Both the position numbers and the translations under genes were made by a program. A stretch of DNA of 64,000 nt from Verrucomicrobiota bacterium (GTDB lineage Bacteria; Verrucomicrobiota; Verrucomicrobiia; Limisphaerales; UBA11358). Below the pieces are notes generated by a model. It did no database searches and was not told the origin of the DNA. It saw only the letters and a program-made list of their open reading frames with translations. The stretch is from NCBI GenBank assembly GCA_049516255.1, contig JBEKTH010000011.1:10348-74347 (forward strand). The letters run 5' to 3'. Shown here in pieces: positions 1,719-46,697 of this stretch (position 1 is the first letter of the stretch; the number at the start of each line of letters is the position of its first letter).

Positions 1719-1812
1719 AGGAGATGGCAGACGGGAGATGGGAGTTAGGAAAAACAACAAAGCAAAATATGTCGAATCTGATTCCCCCATCTGCCATCTG
1801 CAAACTCCCAAC
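1719..1812. repeat. Tandem-repeat-armed inverted repeat (unit about GGAGATG/GCAGATG)
   Basis: Left arm ggagatg gcagacg ggagatg ggagtta. Right arm cccccat ctgccat ctgcaaa ctcccaa is its imperfect complement. It fills the dapA-dapB gap. Confidence 0.7.
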
Positions 1813-1823
1813 TGCTATTTGCT

Positions 1824-2555
1824 ATGACTAGAATTATCATTACCGGGGCCAAGGGCCGGATGGGCCAGACGCTGGTGGCCTGTGCGAAGAACTTTCGCGA
1901 AGTGCAAATCGGCGCGCAAATTGACATGGGGGACGACCTTCCCGCCGCCGCCGCGCAGGGCGACGTGGTGGTGGATTTCAGTACGCATACGGCGACGGCG
2001 GACATCGCAGGGGTGTGTGCGCGGCACAAGAAAGCGCTGGTGATCGGCACCACGGGACATACGAACGCCGAACGAAATGAAATTTTAAAGTTCAAAACGA
2101 AAATCCCGATGGTTTGGACCGCGAACTTTTCGACCGGCGTCAACACGTTGTTCTGGCTGACGCGCAAGGCGGCGGAGATTTTGGGGCCGGACTTCGATCT
2201 GGAAATCGCCGAAATGCACCACCGCATGAAGCTGGACGCGCCGAGCGGTACGGCCAAGGCGCTGGCGCAAATCCTGGCCGAGGTGCGCAAGCAACATCTG
2301 GACAAGGTGGCGCGGCACGGCCGGCTGGGCATCGGCGAGCGTGCGCCGGGGGAGATCGGCATTCATTCCCTGCGGGGCGGCGACGTGGTGGGCGATCACA
2401 CGGTGATTTTTGCCGCCAACGGCGAGCGCATCGAATTGACGCACAAGGCTTCCAGCCGCGACTCCTTTGCCAACGGCGCGTTGCGCGCGGCGATCTGGGT
2501 GGCCAAGCAAAAGCCCGGCCTTTACGACATGCAGGACGTGCTCGGTTTGAAGTAG
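1824..2555 (+). CDS. dapB: 4-hydroxy-tetrahydrodipicolinate reductase
   Basis: 243 aa. ITGAKGRMG N-terminus and the EMHHRMKLDAPSGTA motif are characteristic of DapB. Confidence 0.95.
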   Translation: MTRIIITGAKGRMGQTLVACAKNFREVQIGAQIDMGDDLPAAAAQGDVVVDFSTHTATADIAGVCARHKKALVIGTTGHTNAERNEILKFKTKIPMVWTANFSTGVNTLFWLTRKAAEILGPDFDLEIAEMHHRMKLDAPSGTAKALAQILAEVRKQHLDKVARHGRLGIGERAPGEIGIHSLRGGDVVGDHTVIFAANGERIELTHKASSRDSFANGALRAAIWVAKQKPGLYDMQDVLGLK

Positions 2556-2589
2556 GACAGGCTTCCAGCCCGTCTCCATTTTTAATTCC

Positions 2590-3111
2590 TTGATGCAGAC
2601 AGAAATTCAGAGACAGGCGCGACGCCTGTCCTACGTTGCGCTTGGCTCCAATCTCGGTGATTCGCGCAAAATCATTTTGGAAGCGATGGCGCGGCTGCAA
2701 AACTGGTCAGACCGGCCGATACTTAAATCCTCGCTCTGGCAGACGTCACCGGTGAATTGTCCGCCAGGTTCACCCCGGTTTGTCAACGCAGTGGTGGGCC
2801 TGGCGCCGCGAACCGAAGAAACGCCGGAATCGTTGCTGGAAAAACTGCGGTCGCTCGAAAAGGAATTTGGCCGCCGGCCGAAAACAGCCTTAAACGAACC
2901 CCGACCCTTGGATCTGGATTTGATTGCGTTCGGCGCCGAAACGCGCGCCACGCCGGAGCTGATTTTGCCGCATCCCCGGGCGCATCTGCGGCGGTTTGTG
3001 CTTCGGCCATTGAGTGAGATCGCGCCGGAGCTGGTTTTGCCGGGGCAGGGGAAGACCGTGGTCCAACTGCTGGCCGGGCTTGCGGATGATGAAACGGTCA
3101 AACGGCTCTGA
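2590..3111 (+). CDS. folK: 2-amino-4-hydroxy-6-hydroxymethyldihydropteridine diphosphokinase (HPPK)
   Basis: YVALGSNLGD...LDLDLI...LILPHPRAHLRRFVLxPL signature of FolK. Confidence 0.9.
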   Translation: MMQTEIQRQARRLSYVALGSNLGDSRKIILEAMARLQNWSDRPILKSSLWQTSPVNCPPGSPRFVNAVVGLAPRTEETPESLLEKLRSLEKEFGRRPKTALNEPRPLDLDLIAFGAETRATPELILPHPRAHLRRFVLRPLSEIAPELVLPGQGKTVVQLLAGLADDETVKRL

Positions 3112-3127
3112 ATCGATCAATTCACGA

Positions 3128-3200
3128 TGTGCGATTTACGATTTACGAGGTCCTTTCGTAATTTGAGCGGCGCGTCAATCGTCAATCGTAAATCGAAAAT
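3128..3200. repeat. Tandem-heptad inverted repeat (unit ATTTACG / CGTAAAT)
   Basis: Left arm gcgatttacgatttacg. Right arm cgtcaat cgtcaat cgtaaat cgaaaat, with a 12-nt perfect complement (cgatttacgatt). It lies between the convergent folK and dgt 3' ends, so it may be a bidirectional terminator. Confidence 0.75.
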
Positions 3201-3226
3201 AAGAGTTCAGCTCCCGTCATTCCATC

Positions 3227-4384
3227 TCAGGCTTTGGAGGTTTTTCCAAAAATCCGCTTATATTCGAGTCCGACGTAACGGTCGGTCATGCCGGCGAGAT
3301 AATCGCACACGGCGCGATGCAGGCCGGCCTTTTGAATCCGCCGGCGTGCGCTGGCGCCGATTTCCTTCGGATGCGCCAGGTAATAGCGGAAAAGCTGTTC
3401 GAGCATTTTCAAGGAGCGCCGATTCAGCCAGCGGAGCGAGGGATGGTAATAAAGGTTTTTGTACAGGTAATCGCGCAGCTCCAGATTCAGCAGGCGGCGT
3501 TCCGGACTGTGCTGCACGAGCGCCTTGGGGAAAAGCCGGACTTCGTCCGCCGACTGCACGCCGGCGTCGGCAATGAGCCGCTCGCTGGTATTGACGACGT
3601 CGTGGATTTGCAGGTCAATGATGGTGCGAATGATGAAGTAACGGCGGCATTCGTCGGGCAAATCGCCATGTTCCTTTTTCACCAGCCGCGCGGCCTGGGC
3701 CCAGAGGCGGACGTCGCGGCGCAGGTTGTCTTCGGACAACAATCCGGAATCCAGCCCGTCGTCGAGGTCGTGGCTGTAGTAGGTGATTTCGTCGGCGAGA
3801 TTGGCGATCTGCGCTTCGAGCGAGGAATTTTTGGCATCGAAGCCTTTCCGCCGGCCGGGATGATCGTAGGCGGTATAATGTTTTACCAGACCTTCGCGGA
3901 CTTCCCAGGTAAGGTTCAGGCCGTGGAAATCCGGGTATTTTTGCTCCAATTCCTCGACGATGCGCAGGCTTTGGCGGTTGTGCTCGAAACCGCCGTGTTT
4001 TCTCATCAGACGATTTAAAACCGTCTCGCCCTTGTGGCCAAAGGGGGAATGTCCGAGGTCATGGGCGAGCGCGATGCTTTCGGCCAGGTCCTCGTTTAGT
4101 TTGAGCGCGCTGGCAATGTTGCGCGAAACGGCGGCGACCTCGATGGTATGGGTGAGCCGGGTGCGGAGATGATCGCCGGTGCCATTGAGAAAAACCTGGG
4201 TTTTGTATTCAAGCCGGCGGAAGGCGCGCGAATGGATGACGCGGTCGCGGTCGCGCTGGTATTGCGTGCGCCATTGGGGCGGCGATTCCGGGTAATTACG
4301 CCCGCGGGTGTCGCCGCTGAGCTGGGCGTAGGGCGCGAGGATTTGCCGTTCGATGTATTCCAGTTCCTGGCGCGTGCGGGGCAT
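3227..4384 (-). CDS. dgt: dGTP triphosphohydrolase-like HD-domain protein
   Basis: 385 aa. Has RTRLTHTIEV...LAHDLGHSPFGH HD motif and DLDD, as in the dGTPase family. Confidence 0.85.
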   Translation of the reverse strand: MPRTRQELEYIERQILAPYAQLSGDTRGRNYPESPPQWRTQYQRDRDRVIHSRAFRRLEYKTQVFLNGTGDHLRTRLTHTIEVAAVSRNIASALKLNEDLAESIALAHDLGHSPFGHKGETVLNRLMRKHGGFEHNRQSLRIVEELEQKYPDFHGLNLTWEVREGLVKHYTAYDHPGRRKGFDAKNSSLEAQIANLADEITYYSHDLDDGLDSGLLSEDNLRRDVRLWAQAARLVKKEHGDLPDECRRYFIIRTIIDLQIHDVVNTSERLIADAGVQSADEVRLFPKALVQHSPERRLLNLELRDYLYKNLYYHPSLRWLNRRSLKMLEQLFRYYLAHPKEIGASARRRIQKAGLHRAVCDYLAGMTDRYVGLEYKRIFGKTSKA

Positions 4385-4393
4385 GGTTCAAGG

Positions 4394-4494
4394 TGGTGAC
4401 CAGTGACGGGTGACAGGTGACAGGAAAGGCATTCTGGTGGCGAGCGGATTTTTGCCCGCCACGGGTCACCGGCCACCTGCCACGTCAGGTGGCC
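4394..4494. repeat. Tandem-heptad inverted repeat (unit GGTGACA)
   Basis: Left arm ggtgacc agtgacg ggtgaca ggtgaca. The right arm holds complementary gtcacc/gccacc units. It lies between the ispH stop and the dgt start. Confidence 0.7.
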
Positions 4495-5711
4495 AGCAAT
4501 TTCTGGACGGAGATGCCGCGCAGTCCAAACAGCCGGTGAATCACGTCTTCGATCAGGTTGTTCGGGCACGACGCGCCGGCGGTGATGCCGACGGTGATTT
4601 TGCCGGACGGCAGCCAGTCACGGGTCTCGGTTTCCTTTTTGGTGTGCTGGTCGTAATGGCGGATGAGCCGGTCCGACTCCATTTTGGCCGCGTTTTTGAT
4701 GAAGTAGGTCGGCAGTTTGGCCTCACCCATTTCGGCGAGGTGCGACGTGTTGGACGAATTGTAACCGCCGATGACGAGCAGCAAATCCATCGGCTCACGC
4801 AACAGTTTTTGGAGCGCGTCCTGGCGGTCCTGGGTCGCACCGCAAATCGTGTCGAAAAACCGGAAATGTTCGGCGACGTTTTCGGGGCCGTATTTTTTCT
4901 CCATGGCGGCCTTGAAACGGCGTTGCACCTCCTCGGTTTCGCCGCGCAACATGGTGGTCTGGTTCGCCACACCGACCGCCTGCAAATGCAGTTCCGGGTC
5001 GAACCCCTGCGAATACGCGCCCTTGAACTTTTCCAGGAATTCCTGCTTGTCGCCGCCTTGAACAATGTAATTGCAGACGTAATCGGTCTCCGCGAGGTTG
5101 AAGACGACGAGATAATGTCCGCTGCCATAGGCGCGGGCCTGGGAGCTGGTGGCCTTGGTTTCCTCGTGCCACGCCTTGCCGTGGATGATGCTCGTGACGC
5201 TGTCCTTGGAATATTGCCGGACACGCTTCCAGACGCTCATCACGTCACCACAGGTGGTGTCCACGAGCACACAGCCTTTCTCTTCGAGTCGTTTGCGCGT
5301 GCCAACCTCGGTGCCAAACGCGGGAATCATCACCACGTCTCCGGGATTCAGGCGGGTCATCTCCTCCTCGGTCGGCTTGGGCGAGATGATCTGGATGCCC
5401 ATGTTGCGGATCTGGTCGTTGACCTCCGGGTTGTGGATGATTTCGCCGAGCAGATAAATGGGTTTTTCCGGCGGGAAATATTTCCGCGCGGCGTAGGCGA
5501 GGTCAATTGCCCGCTCGACGCCATAGCAGAAGCCGAACTCCTTCGCGAGCTTCACGGTGAGGCTGTCGGCGGAAAGCACGCAGCCGTTCGCGCGGACGCG
5601 TTCGACGAGTTCGCTGCGATAATGGGAGAGCACCTGGGCCTGCACGGCCTCAAGGATGTCGGGCCGGCGGAGGTTGACTTTTTTTTGCGCGGCGGGCGCT
5701 TCGGTTGACAT
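4485..5711 (-). CDS. ispH: 4-hydroxy-3-methylbut-2-enyl diphosphate reductase (long form)
   Basis: 408 aa. GFCYGVERAI and later conserved Cys/His segments are present. It has an N-terminal extension of about 90 aa compared with the E. coli-type enzyme. Confidence 0.93.
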   Translation of the reverse strand: MSTEAPAAQKKVNLRRPDILEAVQAQVLSHYRSELVERVRANGCVLSADSLTVKLAKEFGFCYGVERAIDLAYAARKYFPPEKPIYLLGEIIHNPEVNDQIRNMGIQIISPKPTEEEMTRLNPGDVVMIPAFGTEVGTRKRLEEKGCVLVDTTCGDVMSVWKRVRQYSKDSVTSIIHGKAWHEETKATSSQARAYGSGHYLVVFNLAETDYVCNYIVQGGDKQEFLEKFKGAYSQGFDPELHLQAVGVANQTTMLRGETEEVQRRFKAAMEKKYGPENVAEHFRFFDTICGATQDRQDALQKLLREPMDLLLVIGGYNSSNTSHLAEMGEAKLPTYFIKNAAKMESDRLIRHYDQHTKKETETRDWLPSGKITVGITAGASCPNNLIEDVIHRLFGLRGISVQKLLAT

Positions 5712-5767
5712 AACAAAGGAAGTGTAACACGCGAACGGGCATCGTCTAGCGCGAAAGCCACGGTGAA

Positions 5768-5838
5768 ATGGATTGATGGATTTTTGGATTATTGACGTGG
5801 TCCCCGGCCGCGCTCCTCCAATAATCCACCAATCCGGC
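5768..5838. repeat. Tandem-repeat inverted repeat (period about 8, unit TGGATTnn)
   Basis: Left arm tggattga tggatttt tggattat. Right arm ccaataatccaccaatcc, with a 10-nt perfect complement (tggattattg). It lies upstream of tRNA-Pro. Confidence 0.7.
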
Positions 5839-5913
5839 GCTTCAATACTTTCCTGCCTTAAACGAATGTCATTGCGAATCCAACTGAATGCGGGGATACT
5901 TCAGTCTGCAAGT

Positions 5914-5990
5914 CGGAGCGTAGCTCAGCTTGGTAGAGCACCAGCTTTGGGAGCTGGCTGTCGCAGGTTCAAATCCTGTCGCTCCGACCA
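5914..5990 (+). tRNA. tRNA-Pro (anticodon TGG), CCA encoded
   Basis: Acceptor cggagcg/cgctccg, anticodon stem-loop ccagc-tttggga-gctgg, T-arm ggttcaaatcc. Confidence 0.9.
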
Positions 5991-6136
5991 TTTCTTCACC
6001 TTTTGTCCAGGTGTGACCTGGTCCGGACGAACCATGGCCGCAACCCGTTGTCCCGGGGAGAATTCCGGCTTTTGCTTGTCATGCGGGAATGCCCATACTT
6101 TAATTTAATCAGCGAACGGGCTTTCGAACCATTCCG

Positions 6137-8812: not shown

Positions 8813-8891
8813 AAACGCGCGTGAGCCAATCACAGCCGAGCACAGACGCATACTATATACCGCTCGTGAATTGCGGGCGGAAGCTGGGTGA

Positions 8892-16776: not shown

Positions 16777-16794
16777 ATGTTTTCCTCATTTCTA

Positions 16795-16905
16795 GCCCCG
16801 TCGGGGCGGCATATTCCATTTATCCGCCCGACGATGTCGCTCCTAACGGAGCTTTGCCGTTTTGAAATTGCCAATATACAAAGATTCCAGCCCTATGGGC
16901 TTTGA
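16795..16905. repeat. Possible MITE/REP-like element (single copy in window)
   Basis: Holds the hairpin gccccgtcggggc and the segment gtcgctcctaacggagc. It reads as SPVGAAYS...VAPNGA in one frame. There is only one copy in the window, so repeat status is inferred. Confidence 0.3.
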
Positions 16906-16907
16906 AA

Positions 16908-16946
16908 AATCTGTGCTCAATCTGTGTTTCATCTGTGGCTAGAAAA
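16908..16946. repeat. ATCTGTG-type tandem repeat (period 11), copy A
   Basis: atctgtgctca atctgtgtttc atctgtggcta, immediately 3' of hemC. Confidence 0.8.
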
Positions 16947-16948
16947 AC

Positions 16949-17971
16949 CTATTTCAACTGCGCCGCCAGTTCCTCACCCAGCGCTGCCGCCTCAGCAATC
17001 GCGCGCTTCCCTTCGCTGTGTTTCGCCGGCCCGTGGTGGAACGAAACCGCGCGCATTTCCACCCGGCTGCCGTTGATTTCAGCGTAGGCGGCCACCGGAC
17101 TCTGGCAGCCGCCGCCCATCGCGCGCAAGAATGCCCGTTCCGCCGTCACGCAATGAAATGTGTTGAAATGATTCAGCCGCTCGCAAATTTTGGCGATGCG
17201 CTCGTCGTCTGCGCGAATCTCAATGCCGATCGCTCCTTGTCCGACACACGGCAACATCACGTCCACGTCCAGAACCGTCGCCAGCAGACCGTCCGGCACC
17301 GCGTCGCCGATGAGCCGTCCGTCCCGTTTGATTTCGAAATTCAACCGCGTGATGCCCGCCAGCGCGAGCACGGTCGCGTCCAGTTCACCACGCTCGGCGA
17401 CCTTCTGCATGCGGGTGGAAACGTTGCCGCGGATTTCCACGACATTTAAATCCGGCCGGGCGGCGAGTAATTGTTCCTTGCGCCGCGTGCTGCTGGTGGC
17501 GATGGTCGCCTTGGCCGGGAAATCCTTCAGTTTCAAGTGCGGCCGGAAACCGCGCAATGCGTCCTGGCCCGGCGCCCAGTCGGCCGAGGCCGTGTCGGTG
17601 GCGCGGCTCTTGATGAATTCGGCATCGCGATAGATCAACACGTCGCGCACGTCGGCGCGCTTGGGGGTGGCGGCGAGCACGAGACCGGCGGGCAGATCGG
17701 TCGGCAAATCCTTCAGGCTGTGCACGGCGAGGTCGGCCTGGCCCTTGACCAGCGCGACTTCAAGTTCCTTGGTAAACAAACCTTTGGGCAGGGCCTCACC
17801 CTTTTTCGCCATCGAGGCGGTCTGCATTTTGTCGCCGGTGGTCTTGATGATTTTTAGTTCGAAGCGCAGCCGGGGAAACGTTTCGCGGCATTGTGCGGCC
17901 ATCAGGTTGGCCTGCGCGAGCGCGAGCGCGCTGCCGCGCGTGGCGATGATGATGGGGCGTTCAACAGCCAT
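16949..17971 (-). CDS. hemC: Hydroxymethylbilane synthase (porphobilinogen deaminase)
   Basis: 340 aa. IIIATRGSALALAQ, LKDLPT and the CQGAIGIE-like (CVGQGAIGIE) region are present. Confidence 0.95.
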   Translation of the reverse strand: MAVERPIIIATRGSALALAQANLMAAQCRETFPRLRFELKIIKTTGDKMQTASMAKKGEALPKGLFTKELEVALVKGQADLAVHSLKDLPTDLPAGLVLAATPKRADVRDVLIYRDAEFIKSRATDTASADWAPGQDALRGFRPHLKLKDFPAKATIATSSTRRKEQLLAARPDLNVVEIRGNVSTRMQKVAERGELDATVLALAGITRLNFEIKRDGRLIGDAVPDGLLATVLDVDVMLPCVGQGAIGIEIRADDERIAKICERLNHFNTFHCVTAERAFLRAMGGGCQSPVAAYAEINGSRVEMRAVSFHHGPAKHSEGKRAIAEAAALGEELAAQLK

Positions 17972-18012
17972 TTTCTAGCCACAGATGAACACAGATAAAC
18001 TCAGATGAAAAG
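17971..18012. repeat. ATCTGTG-type tandem repeat (period 10), copy B, inverted relative to A and C
   Basis: ttttctagccacagatgaacacagataaactcagatgaaaag is the reverse complement of catctgagtttatctgtgttcatctgtggctagaaaa. Confidence 0.8.
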
Positions 18013-18026
18013 AACAACAAATTCCG

Positions 18027-19214
18027 TCAGGGTTTTGCTGGTGCTGTTTCCAATCTATGTGCATCTGTGTTTATCTGTGGCTGGATGATTTTCGGTACAA
18101 GCAGTGGCTTGACCTTCTCGGCAATGATGGCCTCGCACCGCGCGATTTCGTCCTGGCGCTGCTTCAGATAATCGTCGGCGATGGCCTGCAAATCATCGAT
18201 GTTATAAAGATAGACGTTCTCCAGAAAATTCACCGCCGGATCGATGTCGCGCGGCACCGCGATATCAATGAGCAATAAGGGGCGTTGCTTGCGCGCCTTC
18301 ATCAGCGGTTCGAGTTTCGCGCGGTCCAGAATGTGATGCGGCGCCGAGGTGCTGCTGATGACGATGTCGACCTTCTCAAACTCCGTTGCCCAATCGTCAA
18401 AGGGCACGGCGCGCCCGCCGAATTCCCCGGCCAGGACTTGCGCGCGCTCGAACGAACGGCCGGCAATGATGATGCTACGTGCGCCGCGCGAGAGCAGGGC
18501 GCGGGCGGTTTTCTCGCTCATCTCGCCGGCGCCAATGACGAGCACATCGCGGTTGTTGAGCGAGTTGAAAATCTTCTCCGCGAGTTCGACCGCGGCGGAC
18601 GCCACGGAAACGCTGCCGCGCTGGATGCTGGTGTGCGTGCGGACGTGTTTGGCCACGTGAAAAGCGCGTTGGAACGCCTTGTTCAACCGCGCGCCGGTAT
18701 GGCCATGCTGCTGCGCGAGCGCGTAAGCCTCTTTGAGCTGGCCCAGGATTTCCGTTTCACCGAGCACCATCGAGTCCAGTCCGCACGCCACCTTGAACAG
18801 GTGCTGCAGGCTCTGCGGCTCGGCCAGCGTGTAAAGTTCATCACCAGACAACTGGACTCCCTCGCCCCGCCCAAGCGGGGAGAGGGAAGGGGCAAGGGGA
18901 TTTGAATTTGAGAAAACGGCCTCCTCTCCCCGGCCCGCTCCTCGTTGAGGAGAGGGAGAATGTTCCAGTAATTGGGAGTTTCCACTCCACTGGATCAGGA
19001 ATTTTTTCAGTTCCTCAAACGCCACCGCCGGTCCCTGGGCCGCGGCGGCGTAGATTTCCACGCGATTGCACGTGGAAAGGATGACGGCTTCGGCGATACC
19101 CGATTCACGGAGCGATTTGAGCGCGGCGGGGATTTTCGTTTCGGCAAAGGTGAACCGTTCCCGCAGTTCCACGGGCGACGAATGATGGCTCAAACCGATG
19201 ACGACGACGTTCAT
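18027..19214 (-). CDS. hemA: Glutamyl-tRNA reductase
   Basis: MNVVVIGLSHHSSPVELRE...STCNRVEIY...GLDSMVLGETEILGQLK...VIGAGEM motifs. The start is set at the ATG at 19214. It contains an in-frame repeat insertion and a repeat-encoded C-terminal tail. Confidence 0.9.
   Translation of the reverse strand: MNVVVIGLSHHSSPVELRERFTFAETKIPAALKSLRESGIAEAVILSTCNRVEIYAAAAQGPAVAFEELKKFLIQWSGNSQLLEHSPSPQRGAGRGEEAVFSNSNPLAPSLSPLGRGEGVQLSGDELYTLAEPQSLQHLFKVACGLDSMVLGETEILGQLKEAYALAQQHGHTGARLNKAFQRAFHVAKHVRTHTSIQRGSVSVASAAVELAEKIFNSLNNRDVLVIGAGEMSEKTARALLSRGARSIIIAGRSFERAQVLAGEFGGRAVPFDDWATEFEKVDIVISSTSAPHHILDRAKLEPLMKARKQRPLLLIDIAVPRDIDPAVNFLENVYLYNIDDLQAIADDYLKQRQDEIARCEAIIAEKVKPLLVPKIIQPQINTDAHRLETAPAKP
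18050..18085. repeat. ATCTGTG-type tandem repeat (period 10), copy C
   Basis: atctatgtgc atctgtgttt atctgtggct. It lies inside the last codons of the hemA ORF and is inverted relative to copy B, 37 nt away. Confidence 0.8.
18857..18960. repeat. Two GC-rich palindromic (REP-like) units inside the hemA coding sequence
   Basis: Unit 1 is ctccctcgccccgc-ccaa-gcggggagaggga. Unit 2 is ctcctctcc...ggagagggag. In the hemA frame they encode SPSPQRGAGRGEE...SLSPLGRGEGV. Confidence 0.75.
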
Positions 19215-19218
19215 TGCA

Positions 19219-19303
19219 GGCAGGTGACGGGTGACAAGTGGCAGGTGACAAGACAAGGCAGGCTATCCAGCCCGCGCCACTTTTCACTTGTCACTTGCCA
19301 CAT
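19219..19303. repeat. Tandem-heptad inverted repeat (unit GGTGACA)
   Basis: Left arm caggtga cgggtga caagtgg caggtga caag. Right arm ccacttttcacttgtcacttgccac, with 10 of 11 complementary (gtgacaagtgg). It lies between the hemX-like gene and hemA. Confidence 0.8.
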
Positions 19304-19308
19304 TGTTT

Positions 19309-20130
19309 TCATGGATGATGCAGTGGTGAGAGGAGGTTCGTGCCCCAAAAGGTCAGGAGCAGGAAGACAAACGCAGCGATGACGCCGTAGGCGAATCGGC
19401 GGCTGGATTGGGCAAAACCCAGGCGCGATACCAGCAGCGCCAGATAAACCAGCCACATGAAGGCGGACCAGATCACTTTCGGGTCCGACCAGTAACCCGC
19501 GTCCGCGGCGCGGGGCAGGTAACGGCCGGCTTCGAGGCCGATGGTAAAAAGAACGAAGCCGGCCAGCACGAGACGGCCGGTGACGATTTCGAGCCGTTGA
19601 ATCGGCGGCAGCAAAGACAGCACGGCGCGAAGTTTGTGGAATTTTAAATCATGTTGTTCGGTCAGGAACATGCCCGCGGCCGCCGCGCCCAGGCCGAATG
19701 CGCCGTACGCCAGCAGAATGGTCGCCGCGTGCAGACTGGTCAGCGCGCCGGTGAATTGCGGTGCCGGACCATGCGGCGGATCCAGTTCCGGCATCAACGC
19801 AAACACGCCGATGGCGAACAACACCGGTGATGCAAACGCGCCGAGGAATCGCAGCTTGGGCAGCAGGCCGATGACAAGATAGGCGGCGGCGGCGCTCCAG
19901 GCAATGAACACGGTGGCTTCGAACAGATTGTTGACCGGGCAATGGTTGACGGAGAAGCCGCGCCGGACCATTGCCACCGTATGCAGCACAAATGCCGTGA
20001 GCAGCAAAAGGTAATTCACGTGGTCGTCCTTGCGAAAACCTTTTCGCCACAAGAAAACCGAATACACCGTGCTTAAACCGTAAACGGCAACGGCGAGCAG
20101 AAAGAAATGACGGTCAGTGAACCAAGCCAC
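19309..20130 (-). CDS. CcsA/HemX-like cytochrome c assembly family membrane protein
   Basis: 273 aa and polytopic. It sits upstream of hemA, as hemX does in hemAXC-type operons. GTG start. Confidence 0.75.
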   Translation of the reverse strand: MAWFTDRHFFLLAVAVYGLSTVYSVFLWRKGFRKDDHVNYLLLLTAFVLHTVAMVRRGFSVNHCPVNNLFEATVFIAWSAAAAYLVIGLLPKLRFLGAFASPVLFAIGVFALMPELDPPHGPAPQFTGALTSLHAATILLAYGAFGLGAAAAGMFLTEQHDLKFHKLRAVLSLLPPIQRLEIVTGRLVLAGFVLFTIGLEAGRYLPRAADAGYWSDPKVIWSAFMWLVYLALLVSRLGFAQSSRRFAYGVIAAFVFLLLTFWGTNLLSPLHHP

Positions 20131-22170: not shown

Positions 22171-22332
22171 TGATTTGCGATTTGGGATATACGATTTACG
22201 CGCCCTCAAACAAATCGAAATCCCAACCCTTATGAATCACGAAGAAATGAAGGCTCGGAAACAAGAACCGCGCGCATCTCGCGCAGCGCGTAAATCGTGA
22301 ATCGTAAATCGTAAATCGTAAATTGTAAATCC
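22171..22332. repeat. Tandem-heptad inverted repeat (unit ATTTACG / CGTAAAT), largest copy
   Basis: Left arm gatttgc gatttgg gatatac gatttac gcg. The right arm is 6 heptads: cgtaaat cgtgaat cgtaaat cgtaaat cgtaaat tgtaaat. There is a 12-nt perfect complement and a spacer of about 86 nt with a GC-rich palindrome. It fills the lpxC/fabZ-lpxA gap. Confidence 0.85.
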
Positions 22333-24744: not shown

Positions 24745-24750
24745 GCCGGA

Positions 24751-24846
24751 GAGGATGGGTGGGTGGATGAATGGATTGCTGGATAAATTGGTTTGGTGGA
24801 TTGGATGAGGGCATTCATCCCGTAATCCATCAATCCACAAATCCAG
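24751..24846. repeat. TGGATT-type tandem inverted repeat (period about 8)
   Basis: The left arm has irregular ggatg/tggatt units. The right arm has aatccaNN four times at 8-nt spacing. The central hairpin is ggatga-gggcat-tcatcc. It lies between tRNA-Trp and tRNA-Ser. Confidence 0.7.
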
Positions 24847-24855
24847 TCTGTCATT

Positions 24856-24955: not shown

Positions 24956-25043
24956 GATTATGATTAAGAAGAAGATTGCGATTAAGAAACCGGACGTCGA
25001 AGAACTCCTTTGTTTTTAATCTTAAAAGTACTCTTAATCTCAC
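24956..25043. repeat. GATTAAG-type tandem inverted repeat (period about 6)
   Basis: Left arm gattatgattaagaagaagattgcgattaagaaa. The right arm has two taatct units. It lies upstream of secE. Confidence 0.65.
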
Positions 25044-26303: not shown

Positions 26304-26388
26304 GATTGAGATGAAAATTAAGATGATGAAGCCGTCGGTGAATTCGACAGATTGCATTCCTGATCTTAATATCCAACTTAATCCAAAC
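26304..26388. repeat. GATTAAG-type tandem inverted repeat
   Basis: Left arm gattgagatgaaaattaagatgatgaag. Right arm ctgatcttaatatccaacttaatcc, with 9 of 10 complementary (attaagatga). It lies between rplK and rplA. Confidence 0.65.
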
Positions 26389-26444
26389 TAGAAACCGCGG
26401 GAGAGTTCCGCAGTGCGGAACTCGGTTGCACCGCAACCAGACAA

Positions 26445-40797: not shown

Positions 40798-40821
40798 AAC
40801 GGCCAACTATTTCTACCCAAA

Positions 40822-40865
40822 CCTCGGCATGGGCAAAAAAACCTGTGCCGAGGTTAATCTTTTTA
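40822..40865 (+). terminator. Possible terminator after pnp
   Basis: cctcggca-N16-tgccgagg, then ttaatcttttt. Confidence 0.5.
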
Positions 40866-40875
40866 CGGCTTTTGA

Positions 40876-40992
40876 ATTAACCGCGAAATGCGCGAAATAC
40901 GCTAACAGGATTTAAAACTTTTTCGTGTATTTAGCGGTTTAAACGGCTTCCCGGCAAATTAACGTTTCGTATTTTTTGTGTTTGGCGGTTCA
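40876..40992. repeat. CGCGAAATA-type palindromic repeat, upstream flank of the GxxExxY gene
   Basis: ttaaccgcgaaatgcgcgaaatacgctaacaggat, followed by two complementary arms (ttttcgtgtatttagcggttt and cgtttcgtattttttgtgtttggcggtt). Confidence 0.75.
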
Positions 40993-41007
40993 GTTATTCT
41001 TTTCCCC

Positions 41008-41409
41008 ATGAAAACTGAATTATTATTCAAAGAGGAAAGTTATAAGATCGTTGGAGCGTGTTTTGAAGTTTATCGTGAGAAAGCCTGTGGTTTCCTTGAA
41101 CCGGTGTATCAGGAATGCATGGAGATTGAATTACGCCTGCAAGGAATTCCGTTTGTGCCTCAGAAGCCGCTGGCACTCGAATACAAGGGTTGTCCGCTGC
41201 GTTCAAAATATGTGCCGGATTTTGTCTGTTACGACAAGATCATGTTGGAACTGAAAGCTGTGACCGAGCTGACTGATGAACATCGGGCGCAAGTACAGAA
41301 TTATCTGACAGCGACGGGACTGAAACTCGGATTGCTGGTCAATTTGGGACATTATCCCAAGGCTGAGGTTGAACGTATCGTGGCTGAAAAGGGCCGATAC
41401 GCACATTAA
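41008..41409 (+). CDS. GxxExxY family protein (PD-(D/E)xK-like)
   Basis: 133 aa from the ATG at 41008. IVGACFEVYREKACGFLEPVYQECMEIEL...PDFVCYDKIMLELKAV...QNYL. Confidence 0.85.
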   Translation: MKTELLFKEESYKIVGACFEVYREKACGFLEPVYQECMEIELRLQGIPFVPQKPLALEYKGCPLRSKYVPDFVCYDKIMLELKAVTELTDEHRAQVQNYLTATGLKLGLLVNLGHYPKAEVERIVAEKGRYAH

Positions 41410-41468
41410 CCGCGAAATACGCTAACAGGATAATTTTTTTTCGCGTATTTCGTGTATTTTGCGGTTTA
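41406..41468. repeat. CGCGAAATA-type palindromic repeat, downstream flank of the GxxExxY gene
   Basis: ttaaccgcgaaatacgctaacaggat, then the complementary arm tttttcgcgtatttcgtgtattttgcggtt. Its first 26 nt match the upstream copy apart from one 9-nt unit. Confidence 0.8.
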
Positions 41469-41469
41469 A

Positions 41470-42045
41470 TTAAATTCTTTTCGCCAGTTCCGCCTGGCTC
41501 TTCGCAAACACTTCCTTGTGCAGCGAATTGCCGTGCGCGTCCATGGTCACCACGGCGGGGAAGTTTTCGACTTCAAATTCCCAGATGGCTTCCGGCGCGC
41601 CAAATTCTTTCATCATATAAACGTTGCGCACCTTCTTGATGCAGTCGGCCAGCACCTGTGCCGCGCCGCCAACCGCGTGCAGATAGACGCAGCCAAAGTC
41701 CTTGCACGCTGCGAGCGTCTTGTCGCCCATGCCACCCTTGCCGATGACACCACGAATGCCGAAGTCCTTGATGATTTGCGCCTGATACGGTTCTTCGCGA
41801 ATGGACGTCGTTGGGCCGGCGGCAGTGGCTTTCCAGGTACCGTCGTCCTGTTTCATCACGACCGGGCCGCAATGATAAAGGATGCCGTCGCGCAGGTTCA
41901 CGCCCGGCGGCAGCTTGCCGCCCTCGTGCAAGTATTTGTGGACCGCGTCGCGCCCGGTGAACACGACGCCGGAAATCAGCACCTCATCGCCGACTTTCAG
42001 TGCCCGGATTTTTTCTTCGGAAAATGGGAATGAAAGTTTAATCAT
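41470..42045 (-). CDS. Class I (Fe-S) fumarate hydratase / tartrate dehydratase beta subunit
   Basis: 191 aa. LKVGDEVLISGVVFTGRDAVHK...IGKGGM. Confidence 0.88.
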   Translation of the reverse strand: MIKLSFPFSEEKIRALKVGDEVLISGVVFTGRDAVHKYLHEGGKLPPGVNLRDGILYHCGPVVMKQDDGTWKATAAGPTTSIREEPYQAQIIKDFGIRGVIGKGGMGDKTLAACKDFGCVYLHAVGGAAQVLADCIKKVRNVYMMKEFGAPEAIWEFEVENFPAVVTMDAHGNSLHKEVFAKSQAELAKRI

Positions 42046-42058
42046 AACAACATCTAAA

Positions 42059-43075
42059 CTAGAACCGTGGTTCGTCGGCCACCGCTGGCTTAAACCGTTG
42101 GATGACTCTTTGAATCCGTTCAGGTACGTTGAACGAGCTCTCTACTTGCTCATTTTTTTTGCACGCGGCTTCCATCCGCGTGAGTTGCTCCGAGGTGAAG
42201 AACTTGAGGCCTTCAATCTTTCCAGCAATGGCCTTGGAAGCTGCGAATGAAGGTGCTTTTTCCAAACCTACAACCAGCGCTTCTCGCATCGTGCCTGCGG
42301 TCGTTTTGTTCTTCAGCAACAAATCCACCACGTCGGCGGCAAGCGCGTCGTGTGCGTCGAGCTTGCCCGGCGAACCTTGCAGTTTGCCGATGAAGCCGTA
42401 AGGGTCTAGGCCAAGCCTGACAGGAATTACTAGCACGCCTTTGCCGATTGCGAAGCCCACTTCCTGGTCAGTCCACTTGCTTTCATGGAAATCAGGCGTG
42501 AGCAATGCGACAAAGGCGTGCATGGAGCGTAGTGCGAGTTCGATTTCACGCTGCCACTCAAGATTCGGCTCGATGTCTTCGTGCGCAACGAACGATGAAA
42601 CACCAAACTTTCGAAACTCCCACTTCAGCTTGGACACCGCAACCTTGTGGGTGGAGACGTGGCTGAGAAATAGTCGCAGCATGCCCGGCAGCCACAAATG
42701 CTCGACATCAACAGGAGCTATCTTTGGGTCAACGGCTTTTGGAGGTTGTTCCAAGATAAGACTGATTGCAACTTCGCGCAGCAACGTATTGCCAGTGTTG
42801 CGCAAAACAGAGGGGAGCTTCCCAGCAATGGCCTTCTCCATTTGCGACACGTCCGGCTCAATGGGTGCGAACACTTTCAATGGCAAATCCAAGAACAGGG
42901 TGAAAAGATACTGCCCGCTATCCCAGTTGTCGTAACCCGTCTCCTCAATTCTTGGTTTGGCGTTTTCTAGAACCTCACAAGCTGAATGATTTCCCTGATG
43001 GCGAAACAACTCGGTCAGCGTCGCCGCCACCGCTTCGGCGCTTTTAGGAAATGCTATTGGAGCTTCATCGTTCAT
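42059..43075 (-). CDS. TIR-like domain protein with an unknown N-terminal domain
   Basis: 339 aa from the ATG at 43075. The core LFLSHVSTHKVAVSKL...FVAHEDIEPNLEWQREI...ALLTPDFHESKWTDQEVGFAIG...VIPV matches the bacterial TIR-like pattern. G+C is visibly lower than in the flanks. Confidence 0.6.
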   Translation of the reverse strand: MNDEAPIAFPKSAEAVAATLTELFRHQGNHSACEVLENAKPRIEETGYDNWDSGQYLFTLFLDLPLKVFAPIEPDVSQMEKAIAGKLPSVLRNTGNTLLREVAISLILEQPPKAVDPKIAPVDVEHLWLPGMLRLFLSHVSTHKVAVSKLKWEFRKFGVSSFVAHEDIEPNLEWQREIELALRSMHAFVALLTPDFHESKWTDQEVGFAIGKGVLVIPVRLGLDPYGFIGKLQGSPGKLDAHDALAADVVDLLLKNKTTAGTMREALVVGLEKAPSFAASKAIAGKIEGLKFFTSEQLTRMEAACKKNEQVESSFNVPERIQRVIQRFKPAVADEPRF

Positions 43076-43110
43076 CGGTTTAACTTCTGCTTGACGAGAT
43101 TCTCGATTAT

Positions 43111-43989
43111 TCAATACAACCACTTCCCAATTTTCCCCTCCGCATCCAGCGTCACGCCCTGGCGGCGGTAGGCCCAGCACATGTAGCTGATGCTGACGAA
43201 ATAGGAAGCAGGCAGACGGTTCGCCGCGCATATCTTCACGCCCAATAGCGTGGTCTTGCCGCCGAAACCCATCGGGCCGATGCCGAGTTCGTTCGCTGTC
43301 TTCAAAATGTCCTGCTCCAGCTTGTCCAGTTCGGGATTCGGATTGCGGTCGGGAATCAACCGCAGGAACTGCGTCTTGCTCAGTTCGTAACCGGTCGCCC
43401 GGTCACCGCCGATGCACACGCCGAGGATGCCCGGGCCGCAGCCCTTGCCCTGCGCCTGCAACACCGCGTCGAGAATCGCCTTGCGGCACCCGTCGAGGTC
43501 GCGATTGGCCTGAAGCTTCTCATTCGGCAACGAGTATTGCGCGCCAACGTTTTCGCAGCCGCCGCCCTTGAGCACCAGCCGCACGCTGACTTCCGGTGAA
43601 CGATGCTGATGGAAATGAAATGCCGGCGCGCCGGGGCCGACGTTGGTACCGTCGTTCACTCCGGTGAGCGAATCCACCGAGTTCTGGCGGAGAAATCCTT
43701 TTTTGGTCGCCAGTTTCACGGCTTCCTTCGCCGTTTCCTCAAACGCGATCGGGTCGAAACCGACCGGACAATCCACGTAAAAGAGGATGCTGCCGGTGTC
43801 CTGGCAGATGGGCTGCGACTTGCGTTTGGCAAGCTGGATGTTCTGGTCGATGATTTTCAGTGCGCTTTCGGCAATCGTGCCTTTTTTTTCCTGTTCCAGG
43901 GATGCGAGGATGGATTGGTTGACGTCGTCGGGAATTTCCGCCGAGGTGCGCCGGATCAATTCGAGCAAGGAATTTTGCAATTCACTCAT
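43111..43989 (-). CDS. Class I (Fe-S) fumarate hydratase / tartrate dehydratase alpha subunit
   Basis: 292 aa from the ATG at 43989. Has the CQDTG motif, and the ...GGGCENV and GPGILGVCIGG regions. Confidence 0.88.
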   Translation of the reverse strand: MSELQNSLLELIRRTSAEIPDDVNQSILASLEQEKKGTIAESALKIIDQNIQLAKRKSQPICQDTGSILFYVDCPVGFDPIAFEETAKEAVKLATKKGFLRQNSVDSLTGVNDGTNVGPGAPAFHFHQHRSPEVSVRLVLKGGGCENVGAQYSLPNEKLQANRDLDGCRKAILDAVLQAQGKGCGPGILGVCIGGDRATGYELSKTQFLRLIPDRNPNPELDKLEQDILKTANELGIGPMGFGGKTTLLGVKICAANRLPASYFVSISYMCWAYRRQGVTLDAEGKIGKWLY

Positions 43990-44141
43990 AAAGCTGCCGA
44001 CAGCGTAAGGCTTTGGAATGCCAGCGTCAATTGGTGGGGCGAGCGTATTCGCGAGCCGGCTAACGGTCAAAGCAGGGCAGCGACGGCTCGTCAGTAGCCT
44101 CGCCCCACCAAATCGGCGCCGGTCATATACCGACGCTACAA

Positions 44142-44573
44142 CTACGCGGCGTCAATCAAGTCAATCCGATGTTGATGCCGGCCGCCTTGGAATGGCGTTT
44201 CCAGCCACACCCGGACAATTTCGAGCGCCATTTCAAGACTGACCATTCGTTCGCCGATGGAAATGACATTGGCGTTGTTGTGCAGGCGACCGAGACGGGC
44301 AGACTCCACGTTCCAGCATAGGGCGCAACGGACGCCCTTGACGCGGTTGGCGGTGATGGCTTCGCCGTTGCCGGAACCACCCAGCACGATGCCGCGTTCG
44401 AATTCGCCCCGCGCGACGCCTTCCGCCACGGGCCGGATGAACAGGGGATAATCTACCAGTTCCTCCGAATGCGTTCCGAAATCCGTGACGTCATGTCCGA
44501 GGTTCTGCAGCAGTTCCTTGATTTTTTCCTTGTACCTGAATCCGGCGTGATCTGACCCAATGGCAATTTTCAT
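44142..44573 (-). CDS. rpiB: Ribose-5-phosphate isomerase B
   Basis: 143 aa. MKIAIGSDHAGFRYKE...GIVLGGSGNGEAITANR. Confidence 0.93.
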   Translation of the reverse strand: MKIAIGSDHAGFRYKEKIKELLQNLGHDVTDFGTHSEELVDYPLFIRPVAEGVARGEFERGIVLGGSGNGEAITANRVKGVRCALCWNVESARLGRLHNNANVISIGERMVSLEMALEIVRVWLETPFQGGRHQHRIDLIDAA

Positions 44574-44642
44574 GGCTCACTCTCCGCACCAGCATGACAC
44601 GCGGGTCTTGACTTTTCCAGCCCGGAGCGCCTTTTCTGCCGG

Positions 44643-46697
44643 GTGAAGTCCGTCCTGCACGTGGCCACGCCGCCGGCGAAACCGTTGATGGTTTATGACG
44701 GCGACTGCAATTTCTGCACGATCTGGATCCGCCGGTGGCAACAGATGACCGGCCAGAGCGTGGACTTTCTGCCGGCGCAGGATCCAGGCATCCCGGCGCA
44801 GTTTCCTGAAATTCCCCGCGAACAGTTTGATACCGCCGTCCAGCTTGTCGAATCCGACGGTACGGTTTATTCCGGCGCCGAAGCGGTGTTTCGCACGCTG
44901 GCGCACAGTTCCCATCGTCAATGGCCGTTGCGCCTTTACCAAGACTCGCCGTTCCTTGCGAACATCACGGAATGGGCTTACCGCCAGGTCGCGACCCATC
45001 GGGCTTTTTTCTCCCTCCTGACGCGCTGGTTTTGGGGACGGCACGTCGAACCGCCGGCGCAAGTTCTCACGCGCTGGATTTTTCTGCGTGCGCTGGCCGT
45101 AATTTACCTGATGGCGTTCGTTTCGTTGTGGACGCAAATCGACGGCCTGATCGGTCACGACGGTATTTTGCCGACCGACCAGTATGTGGCGGCGGCGCGG
45201 CAGCAATGCGACTTGGAGGGGATCGGCCCGGACCGGTTTCGTTTAATACCCACGTTCTGCTGGTTCGATTCATCCGATGGCTTTCTTGGTTTTCAATGCG
45301 CGGCCGGCGTGGGGCTGGCGGTCCTTTTGATGGTTGGCGTTGCACCCGTGCCATGTCTCACCTTGCTGTGGCTGTTGTATCTTTCGCTCGCGACCGTTGG
45401 GCGCGATTTTCTCGGTTTCCAATGGGACAACCTGCTGCTCGAAGCCGGCTTTCTCGCGATCTTTCTGGCGCCGTGGCAATGGCTGCCGCGCTGTTTCCTG
45501 GGAGCGCTGGCATCTTGCCGGCGTGGAGTTGTTGGATCTGGCCGGCAAGATGCCGGCGCTCCGGCTCAAGAAGCGCCACCTTCCCGCATCGTGTTGTGGC
45601 TGCTGCGATTATTGCTGTTCAAACTGATATTTTCATCCGGCTGTGTGAAGCTGTTCAGCGGCGACCCGAATTGGCGCAACCTTACCGCGCTGACTTTTCA
45701 CTATCAAACGCAGCCGCTGCCGACGTGGATTGGCTGGTACGCGCAGCAACTGCCATTGTGGTTTCAAAAGGCGTCCTGTGCCGGGATGTTCGCGATTGAA
45801 CTGGGTGCGCCGTTCCTGATCTTTATGCCACGGCGACTGCGGTTTTGCGGCGGGGCAGCCATCGCGTTTCTCCAAATCCTGATCCTGTTGACCGGCAATT
45901 ACACCTTTTTCAACTGGCTCACGCTGGCATTATGCCTGTTGCTGCTGGATGATTTCGTATTGAAGAAGGTTGTGCCGTTAAAACTCCGGCGTTTGTTTGC
46001 CTTCAACCCTCAACCTTCAACCTTCAACCGGTCCCGGCGCTGGCCGCGTTTCATCACCGTTCCGCTCGCGATGGTGGTGACGATCCTTTACCTGTTTCAG
46101 ATCAGCCTGACGTTCGGCGCCCGGCCGGTCTGGCTGTATCCGGTGGCCGTAGCGGATGCCTGGCTCGAACCTTTTCGGACATTCAACGGGTACGGTTTGT
46201 TCGCCGTGATGACCACCGAACGGCGCGAGATCGTCGTGGAAGGTAGCGATGACGGCATGAACTGGCGGCCGTATGAATTCAAAAACAAACCCGGTGACGT
46301 GGACCGGCGTCCGGCCTTTGTCGCGCCGCACCAGCCGCGCCTGGACTGGCAGATGTGGTTCGCGGCGCTGGGCGATTACCGGGAGAACCCGTGGTTTGTA
46401 AATTTCTGCCTGCGCCTGCTGCAAGGTTCACCGGAGGTGGCGGCGTTGCTGGCCAAAAATCCGTTTCCGGATCACCCGCCGCGCTACCTTCGCGCCGGGC
46501 TTTACGACTATCAATTTACCAGTTTTGCCGAACGGCACGCCTCCGGCGCGTGGTGGAAACGGGAGCGGGTGGGCGAATACCTGCCGCCGGTGTCACTTTC
46601 CGATTTTGAAAAAAATCAGAACTTCCTCTCGACAGACAACCACACATTGTTAATTTCGCAACGGCCATGGCCAAAACCAAACGTATCGGGATACTGA
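44643..46697 (+). CDS. Fusion protein: DCC-type thiol-disulfide oxidoreductase (DUF393) + lipase maturation factor (LMF) family membrane domain
   Basis: 684 aa with a GTG start. The N-terminus has VYDGDCNFC. The LMF-like blocks are [28 protein letters not shown] and [22 protein letters not shown]...[14 protein letters not shown]. It carries two in-frame repeat elements. Confidence 0.8.
45501..45562. repeat. 22-bp-stem GC-rich palindrome inside the LMF coding sequence
   Basis: ggagcgctggcatcttgccggc, an 18-nt loop, then gccggcaagatgccggcgctcc (21 of 22 complementary). It encodes ...[21 protein letters not shown]... Confidence 0.85.
45958..46031. repeat. Tandem-heptad inverted repeat (unit CTTCAAC) inside the LMF coding sequence
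   Basis: Left arm tattgaagaaggttgtg. Right arm cttcaac cctcaac cttcaac cttcaac. It encodes ...[24 protein letters not shown]... Confidence 0.8.

Follow-up and report, generated by a model that had tools for sequence, protein, structure and literature searches.

The window analysed here, a stretch of 64,000 nucleotides from contig JBEKTH010000011.1 (assembly GCA_049516255.1), carries dapA, dapB, folK, dgt, ispH, glnA, hemC, hemA, ccsB, lpxC-fabZ, lpxA, tuf, secE, nusG, rplKAJL, rpoBC, pnp and other genes, four tRNA genes and, at a series of gene junctions, short hairpins in which a tandem array of a short unit is followed by a tandem array of the complementary unit. These tandem-armed hairpins are the subject of this study. 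The relatives of NusG place the source in the Limisphaerales (Pedosphaera-like, subdivision 3) of the Verrucomicrobiota, the nearest genomes being metagenome-assembled genomes from peat, bog and palsa. The G+C content of the window is 54-61%, and an Rfam scan of it matched the tRNAs alone, with no family over the tandem-arm elements.

The DNA read comprises the window and further loci (designated by L numbers) with flanks of ±10 kb; about 90 related loci served for the comparison. The elements are identical in three independent metagenome assemblies (100% identity), and they recur in a fourth, more divergent assembly that has numerous indels and broken genes; they are therefore not an assembly artefact. 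Locus L002 (JGI Ga0645787_0010) has 96.5% identity to the window, and many small indels, probably uncorrected sequencing or assembly errors, split its rpoB and rpoC into short open reading frames (ORFs).

Tandem-armed hairpins in the window

An earlier note on this DNA had described a recurring layout of complementary tandem arms at gene boundaries, and this layout is real and non-random. The arrays (located with TRF) and the inverted arms (located with an inverted-repeat finder) were recovered at the positions it gave, and reading of the sequence confirmed the arrangement. Folding was tested against 200 dinucleotide shuffles per locus, and 11 of the 13 listed stems fold well beyond the shuffles (z -3.0 to -8.2). 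With a multi-register anti-diagonal detector, which finds hairpins whose arms pair in at least two registers, we counted 10 in the window, versus 2.0±1.4 (maximum 7) in 60 dinucleotide shuffles of the whole window and 1.95±1.3 in 150-nt block shuffles. Three pair in at least three registers, versus 0.05 and 0.02 for the two shuffle types, which bears out the proposal that the arms can pair in several registers. Seven of the ten multi-register hairpins are intergenic and the remaining three look like background. A stricter detector, pairing exact tandem arrays, recovered 1 of 12 loci because the units are degenerate, and was replaced. The elements are 60-160 nt long, with periods of 7-11 nt in the window (TRF) and 6-11 nt in the census across loci, and at 7 of 10 gaps their edges come within 0-10 nt of the neighbouring stop or start codon.

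The dapA|dapB hairpin (1719-1814) pairs the ~7-nt units GGAGATG/GGCAGAC with CATCTGC/CATCTCC at -34.4 kcal/mol (z -5.4), in a gap that runs from the stop codon's end at 1717 to the dapB start at 1824. Between the convergent folK and dgt genes lies a CGATTTA/TAAATCG hairpin of the CGATTTA family (3125-3200; registers 0 and 7, z -3.1). A GGTGACA-unit hairpin whose loop holds a small GC-rich hairpin fills the dgt|ispH gap (4394-4484, z -4.1), leaving 9 nt to the dgt start and none to the ispH stop, and the divergent region between ispH and tRNA-Pro holds a hairpin with the 8-nt unit TGGATTnn (5762-5841; registers 0 and 8, z -3.8).

What had been described as one locus at 16908-18085, beside a gene named hemX, is actually two elements flanking hemC, and the true gaps of this region are hemC|hemA and hemA|ccsB. 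The first, between orf181 and hemC, is a degenerate element (16790-16945) that retains an outer TCTAGCC...GGCTAGA and a 3'-type array of ATCTGTGnnn (16908-16945, TRF); its 5' arm is replaced by other sequence, and the array matches an arm of the second element. The latter, the hemC|hemA hairpin (17974-18085), has the 10-nt unit (G/A)AACACAGAT and pairs in registers 0, 10 and 20 (z -8.2). Its 3' arm (18053-18085) falls within the final codons of hemA as the ORF was called, and orthologs are found in L004, L006, L012, L017 and L024.

The lpxC-fabZ|lpxA gap is filled by a hairpin with CGATTTA-family arms and an 82-nt loop (22172-22331), which begins 1 nt past the stop, ends 3 nt ahead of the ATG and pairs in registers 0, 14 and 21 (z -3.0 for 22180-22325). 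The tRNA-Trp|tRNA-Ser spacer contains a further 8-nt TGGATTnn hairpin (24749-24851, z -3.6). For the GATTAAG/CTTAATC hairpin of the tRNA-Ser|secE spacer (24956-25043) the layout is conserved in L004-L010, but the fold is marginal (z -1.8; 11 of 200 shuffles fold as well). The same GATTAAG unit forms the rplK|rplA hairpin (26304-26388, z -3.7), located after the rplK stop and upstream of a motif, CGCGGGAGAG..CTCG..GCACCGC (26395-26440), that precedes rplA in nearly all 80 species compared (L011-L090). This motif looks like an L1 autoregulatory leader; there was no Rfam call at the gathering score.

The hairpin proposed inside a gene at 45958-46031 (plus strand) was rejected. An LMF1-family gene does carry the array, CCTTCAA in 4.3 copies (TRF), in its linker, but the proposed partner arm is marginal (z -1.2; 22 of 200 shuffles fold as well). 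The segment it encodes, FNPQPSTFN, sits in a variable linker between PF06762 and PF25179 and is kept in homologs of 66-88% identity. A unit matching this array, AAGGTTG, occurs in the hemA|ccsB gap of L016 (2266-2362), where five copies adjoin four of CAATCGG; the two are mutually non-complementary, so not all array pairs make hairpins.

Insertion, dispersal and covariation of the arms

The hairpins were inserted into once-compact gene junctions. The clearest case is hemA|ccsB, where L012 has the empty site (..acgacGTTCATGGATGATGCA) with an ATGA start/stop overlap. In the window 98 nt are inserted there (19215-19312), consisting of a GGTGACA-unit hairpin (19219-19303, z -4.0) and a second TTCAT, which leaves both codons intact and produces a 5-bp target duplication (TTCAT at 19210-19214 and 19308-19312). 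Two inserts in L013 have less clean flanking repeats of 5-12 nt.

Presence and absence are also seen across species. Among 79 Limisphaerales species, 27 have a nusG|rplK gap of no more than 30 nt (typically TAA-n-ATTTTTATG) and 51 have one that reaches 40 nt or more. Of the 51 longer gaps, 20 fold with z ≤ -2.5, and these include 12 of 12 close relatives in L013-L025 whose gap is at least 40 nt. The units differ by lineage, among them CGTGAT(A/G), CGTTGAAT/CGTTAAAT, GGAGTRMT and CACGAATGAA. In most of the 80 species the rplK|rplA gap is ~50-60 nt with only the conserved L1-leader-like motif, and in a patchy subset it is ~150 nt with a hairpin. Directly behind the rplK stop, the window clade has the GATTAAG hairpin (~95 nt), as do L013, L016-18 and, at a greater distance, L083. 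The equally close L011, L015 and L019-21 do not have it in this gap, and in further species its place is taken by different hairpins or by a small ORF. These ORFs of ~85-90 aa (L012 10983-11318, L022 9595-9942, L056 1607-1939, L014 11046-11383 and L028 10983-11329) are DUF4177 lipoprotein-like in three species and encode a small membrane protein in two.

The earlier note described the architecture as conserved and the sequence as not; the units at different loci are not unrelated, however, and form dispersed families. The CGATTTA family occupies two window sites and also the unrelated stop|start junctions at L019 1569, L115 1272, L119 34 and L121 1607, and an irregular unit, GATAT(A/G)C, is common to its copies at lpxC|lpxA, at folK/dgt and in these four loci. 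The GGTGACA, TGGATT and GATTAAG units are each found at two window sites and in other species, the GGTGACA copies lying at 4394, at 19219 and at L017 9363. Many elements with a period of 9-10 nt have the ends TTAACC(A/G)C...G(T/C)GGTTAA in common. Conversely, one gap can hold different units in different species (nusG|rplK, rplK|rplA, lpxC|lpxA), and in L006 the tRNA-Trp|tRNA-Ser gap holds an unrelated hairpin instead of TGGATTnn. The elements also nest: in L160 a gene cassette of the GxxExxY type (described below) lies inside a CGCAAAGAA-armed hairpin, in L029 GCAGATT arms lie within CACAGATGAA arms, in L056 a GTAG-type repetitive extragenic palindrome (REP) lies within CACGAATGAA arms, and L015 also shows nested elements. 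Given the evidence for insertion and the dispersed families, the elements therefore behave like dispersed palindromic elements and not like site-specific regulators or canonical terminators.

Comparison of orthologous gaps, which the earlier note had proposed together with the idea of slippage-prone arms, agrees with that idea. Between strains of 94-98% identity, orthologous elements have gained or lost whole units: the tRNA-Trp|tRNA-Ser gap varies from 103 to 115 nt, with whole-unit length variants in L004, L005, L008 and L010. GCGGATT arms have ~3-4 copies in some relatives and 17 in L174 (2869-2978). Two further extreme arrays are TAGTGAT in ~17 copies on a Bernardetia plasmid (L191, upstream of 351) and an 11-nt unit (CTAGTACCTCC) in ~5 copies per arm (L169 3599-3730).

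The arms covary. In 63 distinct hairpins anchored on AACC...GGTT, Watson-Crick pairs fill 1184 of 1386 arm cells, versus 1073±10 with partners shuffled, and we found 80 compensated double changes between arms. Sense and antisense strands fold equally in the window and in 94 cassette hairpins (21 versus 27 and 18 versus 23), and GT/TG mismatches (55) are about as frequent as AC/CA mismatches (48). This lack of a strand or G-U bias argues against selection purely at the RNA level, and the complementarity of the arms looks symmetric at the DNA level.

Together with nesting and with the gene linkage described below, these observations of insertion, dispersal, unit slippage and arm covariation lead us to the view that the loci are probably copies of small palindromic insertion elements with complementary tandem arms of a 6- to 11-nt unit, of the type of the cyanobacterial STRR sequences (repetitive, with short repeats in tandem). 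Such elements would be copied and inserted at the DNA level, with short target duplications left behind; the arms would likewise be kept complementary at the DNA level, and slippage would alter the unit copy number. Hairpin loops and stop|start junctions may be the sites that are hit, or the sites where inserts survive. Stop|start junctions, tRNA spacers and operons would tolerate an insert because the transcript folds on itself and brings the neighbouring gene ends side by side. The stems of 20-35 bp would be natural RNase III substrates, as in rRNA intervening sequences, for which excision by RNase III is established.

A first alternative is that the hairpins are local by-products of mutation, in which slippage amplifies a unit separately in each gap and an intra-strand template switch copies the inverted partner, with neither movement nor function. 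Diverse units, whole-unit copy changes and the fact that no transposase was seen would all fit, as would the missing G-U and sense-strand bias, which is what templated DNA copying would give. Heptamer repeats are moreover over-represented in many bacteria, and a proposed cause is polymerase slippage (Mrazek 2007, summarised in PMC4692102 and PMC4679880). We nevertheless consider this origin unlikely, as irregular units and conserved mismatches are common to non-orthologous copies, a single gene family accompanies the 9-nt hairpin in no fewer than 37 contexts, a whole insertion with its 5-bp target duplication stands at a relative's ATGA overlap, and elements nest inside one another.

There is a similarly small chance that the hairpins are selected RNA elements, acting as RNase III processing sites, 3'-end stabilisers, unconventional terminators or devices for stop-start translational coupling. 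Their exact placement beside stop and start codons, the very stable stems and the persistence at the same operon junctions in distant species speak for such roles, which were also proposed for the cyanobacterial STRR hairpins (PMC2670836). Against them, the same gaps are empty in equally close relatives or hold unrelated hairpins or small ORFs elsewhere, and both strands fold alike. Termination, one of the functions suggested by the earlier note, finds no support: none of the tandem-arm stems is flagged as a stem with a T tract, and intrinsic terminator scans give 22 sites versus 17.5±4.7 expected and 11 versus 9.6±3.3, so terminator-like matches are not enriched over shuffles. The elements lie inside ribosomal-protein and tRNA operons, and closely related species are without them. 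A canonical stem with a T tract stands directly after pnp (40830-40866); the organism therefore uses ordinary intrinsic terminators.

Small genes within and beside the hairpins

Two small-gene families are linked to the insertion elements. The first is the IVP family ('23S rRNA IVS protein' or S23p, Pfam ID PF05635). In L004, L016, L017, L024 and L171-176 a PF05635 four-helix-bundle gene occupies the lpxC|lpxA gap, enclosed by arms of (GCGGATT)n...(AATCCGC)n. The C-terminus of about 37 of 40 sampled IVP homologs is NPQSAIRNPQ, which translates the 3' arm (AATCCGC)n, and over-called N-termini read RIADCGLRIADC, the translation of (GCGGATT)n. Elements reshape ORF ends in this way: IVP ORFs read into the 3' arm, and in the window the 3' end of hemA (18027-18085) lies in a hairpin arm.

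A claim drawn from protein matches, that IVP genes with GCGGATT arms occur across phyla, was withdrawn when the DNA that was checked proved to be the same lpxC|lpxA site. The cross-phylum link comes from plasmid loci. In 8 of 8 plasmid IVP genes, from Cyanobacteriota, Chloroflexota, Bacteroidota and Spirochaetota (Gloeocapsa, Planktothrix, three Nostoc, Ca. Chlorohelix, Bernardetia and Treponema), tandem repeats lie upstream and complementary repeats downstream. Their scores are 13-26, versus a shuffle maximum of 10-12, and every locus beats all 100 shuffles. The units include GATTTTA, CGTAAAT, GCAGATT, GGAGGTC, TAGTGAT (17 copies) and CTCCGCT. On the Nostoc plasmids (L190 772-1012, L192 from 1032, L193 857-1021) the hairpin-embedded IVP gene is directly upstream of a site-specific integrase gene in two cases and of a gene for an XisH excision factor in one.

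The window itself has no intact IVP gene at lpxC|lpxA. The loop contains an ORF that starts at 22232 with MNHEEMKARKQ and matches IVP N-termini at 7 of 11 positions, which none of ~1,580 other M-initiated window peptides reaches, so this ORF is most likely a relic. The gene-less hairpin is probably a decayed IVP cassette. In L016, the orthologous arms at hemC|hemA enclose a DUF4279 gene. DUF4279 was tried as a third cognate cargo and rejected, five homolog loci elsewhere being without tandem-arm hairpins; it is therefore a passenger.

The second family is that of the GxxExxY protein, a PDDEXK_3 member (Pfam ID PF13366, E 4e-39) of 133 aa encoded downstream of pnp on the plus strand (41008-41409). 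The 9-nt-unit palindromes that the earlier note had seen flanking this gene hold up: the upstream hairpin (40876-40945, z -4.3) has the unit CGCGAAATA and the ends TTAACC...GGTTAA, and the downstream hairpin (41406-41469; registers 0 and 9, z -3.3) overlaps the stop codon. The two hairpins are direct repeats of each other, loops included. A metagenome scan yielded 80 homologs of 77-100% identity, nearly all with a hairpin of the 9-nt-unit family beside the gene (flanks in L091-L170). The layout hairpin-gene-hairpin is found 22 times, gene-hairpin 8 times, and in some loci the gene is in the loop. The 9-nt motif is far commoner within 300 nt of the gene than elsewhere, the flanks represent no fewer than 37-45 different contexts, and both orientations of the gene are found at the pnp site. 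Many copies of the cassette hairpin have the same conserved stem mismatches, which points to descent from a master copy.

Invariant residues of the protein are E20, G28, E31, Y34, D71, E81 and K83, and the D..ExK and GxxExxY residues are invariant across Verrucomicrobiota, Spirochaetota, Bacteroidota and Gemmatimonadota. Downstream of a homolog from Gemmatirosa (Gemmatimonadota) stands a hairpin built on a 9-nt CGCGGAT unit, and a Bernardetia homolog lies between inverted arms of the unit CACAGAG. Neither sequence nor profile searches found a relative in the PDB, and a single-sequence AlphaFold model was unusable (pLDDT 37). PDDEXK_3 is listed as a family of unknown function (PMC3424549). Nuclease-like in its predicted PD-(D/E)XK fold, the GxxExxY protein is the only enzyme-like candidate for an engine of movement, and for its own family only.

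It is very improbable that the units are instead periodic arrays to which the hairpin-encoded or adjacent IVP or GxxExxY protein, or a host protein, binds, repeated in tandem for cooperativity: the IVP genes at lpxC|lpxA do keep GCGGATT from 99% to 61% protein identity, GxxExxY genes keep CGCGAAATA-like units as far as the 9-nt CGCGGAT of the Gemmatimonadota homolog, PF05635 proteins resemble Avd, a protein of diversity-generating retroelements (PMC10053308), and CspB is reported to bind heptamer repeats with one protein per heptamer (PMC4679880), but most window elements have no gene, and IVP homologs of similar identity in other phyla use quite different units.

An extension of the insertion-element reading is possible, if somewhat doubtful. 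Tandem-armed hairpins might be the chassis of minimal selfish cassettes that cross phyla, with PF05635 genes in the loops, GxxExxY genes beside or inside the hairpins, and the gene-less hairpins as relics or landing sites. A structure-specific nuclease homing into hairpin loops would then be the candidate engine. If true, this would unite the cyanobacterial STRR repeats, part of the heptamer excess and the ORFs inside 23S rRNA intervening sequences.

Relation to known repeats and implications

The architecture is closest to that of the cyanobacterial STRR sequences, ~7-bp repeats that form hairpins between co-directional genes such as hupS|hupL; their function is unknown, and transcript stability or translational coupling was proposed (PMC2670836). 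The elements described here resemble them in having ~7-bp tandem units with an adjacent complementary array in co-directional gaps (z ≤ -3 for 11 of 13 stems), and this lineage shares units such as CGTAAAT and GCAGATT with the flanks of IVP genes on cyanobacterial plasmids. They differ in host, Limisphaerales in place of filamentous or heterocystous cyanobacteria, and in their units, the classical ones being others, so that they are STRR-like in a working sense and not as a taxonomic member. They also have periods of 6-11 nt and many unit families per genome, and insertion with target duplication, nesting and a link to IVP or GxxExxY genes are not described for STRR sequences in the literature searched.

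Xanthomonas genomes contain intergenic GGGAATC heptamer arrays, including 70-75 convergent inverted pairs; related strains differ in the length of the arrays but not in their position and type (Rehm et al. 2015, PMC4692102). These are likewise intergenic heptamer arrays in inverted, stem-loop-capable pairs of varying length, but they consist of one G-rich unit read as G-quadruplex-forming, whereas here there are many units, most of them unable to form a G-quadruplex, and no gene cargo is reported in Xanthomonas. TAACTGA repeats are common to Beggiatoaceae, cyanobacteria and Bacteroidetes, and heptamers are over-represented in many bacteria (PMC4679880).

The earlier note had set aside REP families and MITEs (miniature transposable elements with inverted repeats) as explanations. 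This exclusion was not upheld, since the elements are insertions polymorphic in presence and absence, with shared irregular units and nesting. REP sequences and REPINs, short palindromes dispersed in extragenic DNA, are regarded as non-autonomous mobile DNA that RAYT transposases mobilise (PMC3116915, PMC3733652). They are the nearest mobile analogue, being dispersed hairpins at gene ends with several families per genome and an occasional intragenic copy. They differ in their size of 20-40 bp, their GTAG/CGTC tag, which the tandem-arm elements do not have, and their non-repetitive arms. As in a MITE, the arms act as terminal inverted repeats of an element of 60-160 nt without a transposase gene. 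Concerning target duplications of fixed length, one is a clean 5-bp TTCAT and the others are 5-12 nt and less clean; concerning an autonomous parent, only the 9-nt family has a gene-bearing form, and GxxExxY is not a known transposase.

The window also has palindromes of other kinds. A true GTAG-type REP pair (GTAGGACAGGC...GCCTGTCCTAC) in the dapB|folK gap (2552-2634) belongs to a family separate from the tandem-arm hairpins, which also fills the hemA|ccsB gap in L006, and GGTAGGG-type REPs occur in L012, L013, L018, L019, L029 and L056. A REP-like palindrome (CCTGGGAGCGCTGGCATCTTGCCGGC...GCCGGCAAGATGCCGGCGCTCCGG) at 45497-45565 lies inside the LMF1-family ORF (44643-46697); its family is intergenic in L020 and L021, and this copy may be an in-frame palindromic insertion. 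An 81-nt palindrome (44031-44111) with 28-nt arms (TTGGTGGGGCGAGCG...CGCCCCACCAA) stands between two minus-strand genes, and its arms are not tandem.

The PF05635 family includes ORFs inside the intervening sequences of 23S rRNA (PMC10053308). The stem of inverted flanks around a PF05635 ORF, a feature of these intervening sequences, is found both in the lpxC|lpxA relatives and at 8 of 8 plasmid loci, and as in rRNA the insertion is where the host RNA tolerates an extra hairpin. The differences are that the site is a gap between protein or tRNA genes and not an rRNA helix, that the arms are tandem heptamers, and that the window, which is without rRNA, holds only a relic ORF. Integron attC sites offer another comparison: a small promoter-less gene has an imperfect downstream palindrome, the hairpin-gene-hairpin layout resembles a cassette between two att sites, and the conserved stem mismatches recall attC extrahelical bases. 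When the sequences alone are read, the ends AATTAAC or CATTAAC...GTTTAAA do not fit RYYYAAC...GTTRRRY, on which ground the attC reading was rejected, and the sites form no array but are scattered at core-gene boundaries. No intI or integrase is present among the named window genes, a part of the genes having been scanned. Intrinsic terminators differ in having a GC-rich short stem with a T tract, which is not seen among the tandem-arm stems. The earlier statement that these are not CRISPR arrays is correct, the units being 6-11 nt, head to tail and with an inverted partner, as opposed to 24-48-nt repeats with unique spacers.

Several points weigh against reading the loci as copies of an insertion element. 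The flanking duplications vary from 5 to 12 nt, and there is one clean pair of empty and filled sites. Elements persist at rplK|rplA, nusG|rplK and lpxC|lpxA across deep divergence, which therefore also fits a selected function. The top IVP matches whose DNA was checked are orthologs at the single lpxC|lpxA site, so within this lineage they speak for persistence and not mobility, and the DUF4279 case demonstrates that not every gene in a loop is cargo. No transposase or recombinase was identified in that part of the genes scanned in the window and loci. The orientation test on the TRF arrays (9 inverted versus 4 direct neighbouring pairs) has little power, copy numbers are those of the window and the ±10 kb loci and not genome-wide, and folding in vivo and cleavage by RNase III are inferred only.

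The architecture itself is known, being STRR-like; what is newly documented here is its presence in another phylum, with many unit families, insertion behaviour and a tie to two small-gene families. In the literature searched, which was covered in part and does not prove novelty, we found no link of the IVP or GxxExxY families to tandem-repeat arms. Catalogues of tandem heptamer repeats and STRR hairpins go back to the 1990s, and we know of no explanation for these repeats to date. PF05635 and GxxExxY are likewise large and widespread families with, to our knowledge, no known function. The window and its relatives tie these hairpins and both gene families together in a testable way, with IVP genes inside heptamer-armed hairpins in five phyla (Verrucomicrobiota and the four plasmid phyla). 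In this bacterium and its relatives the elements occupy junctions in ribosomal-protein, tRNA, lipid A and haem operons and are hot spots of difference between strains that are otherwise 94-100% identical. Their effects on ORF ends and on strain differences are of practical consequence when soil Verrucomicrobiota are studied by gene calling or by strain-resolved metagenomics.

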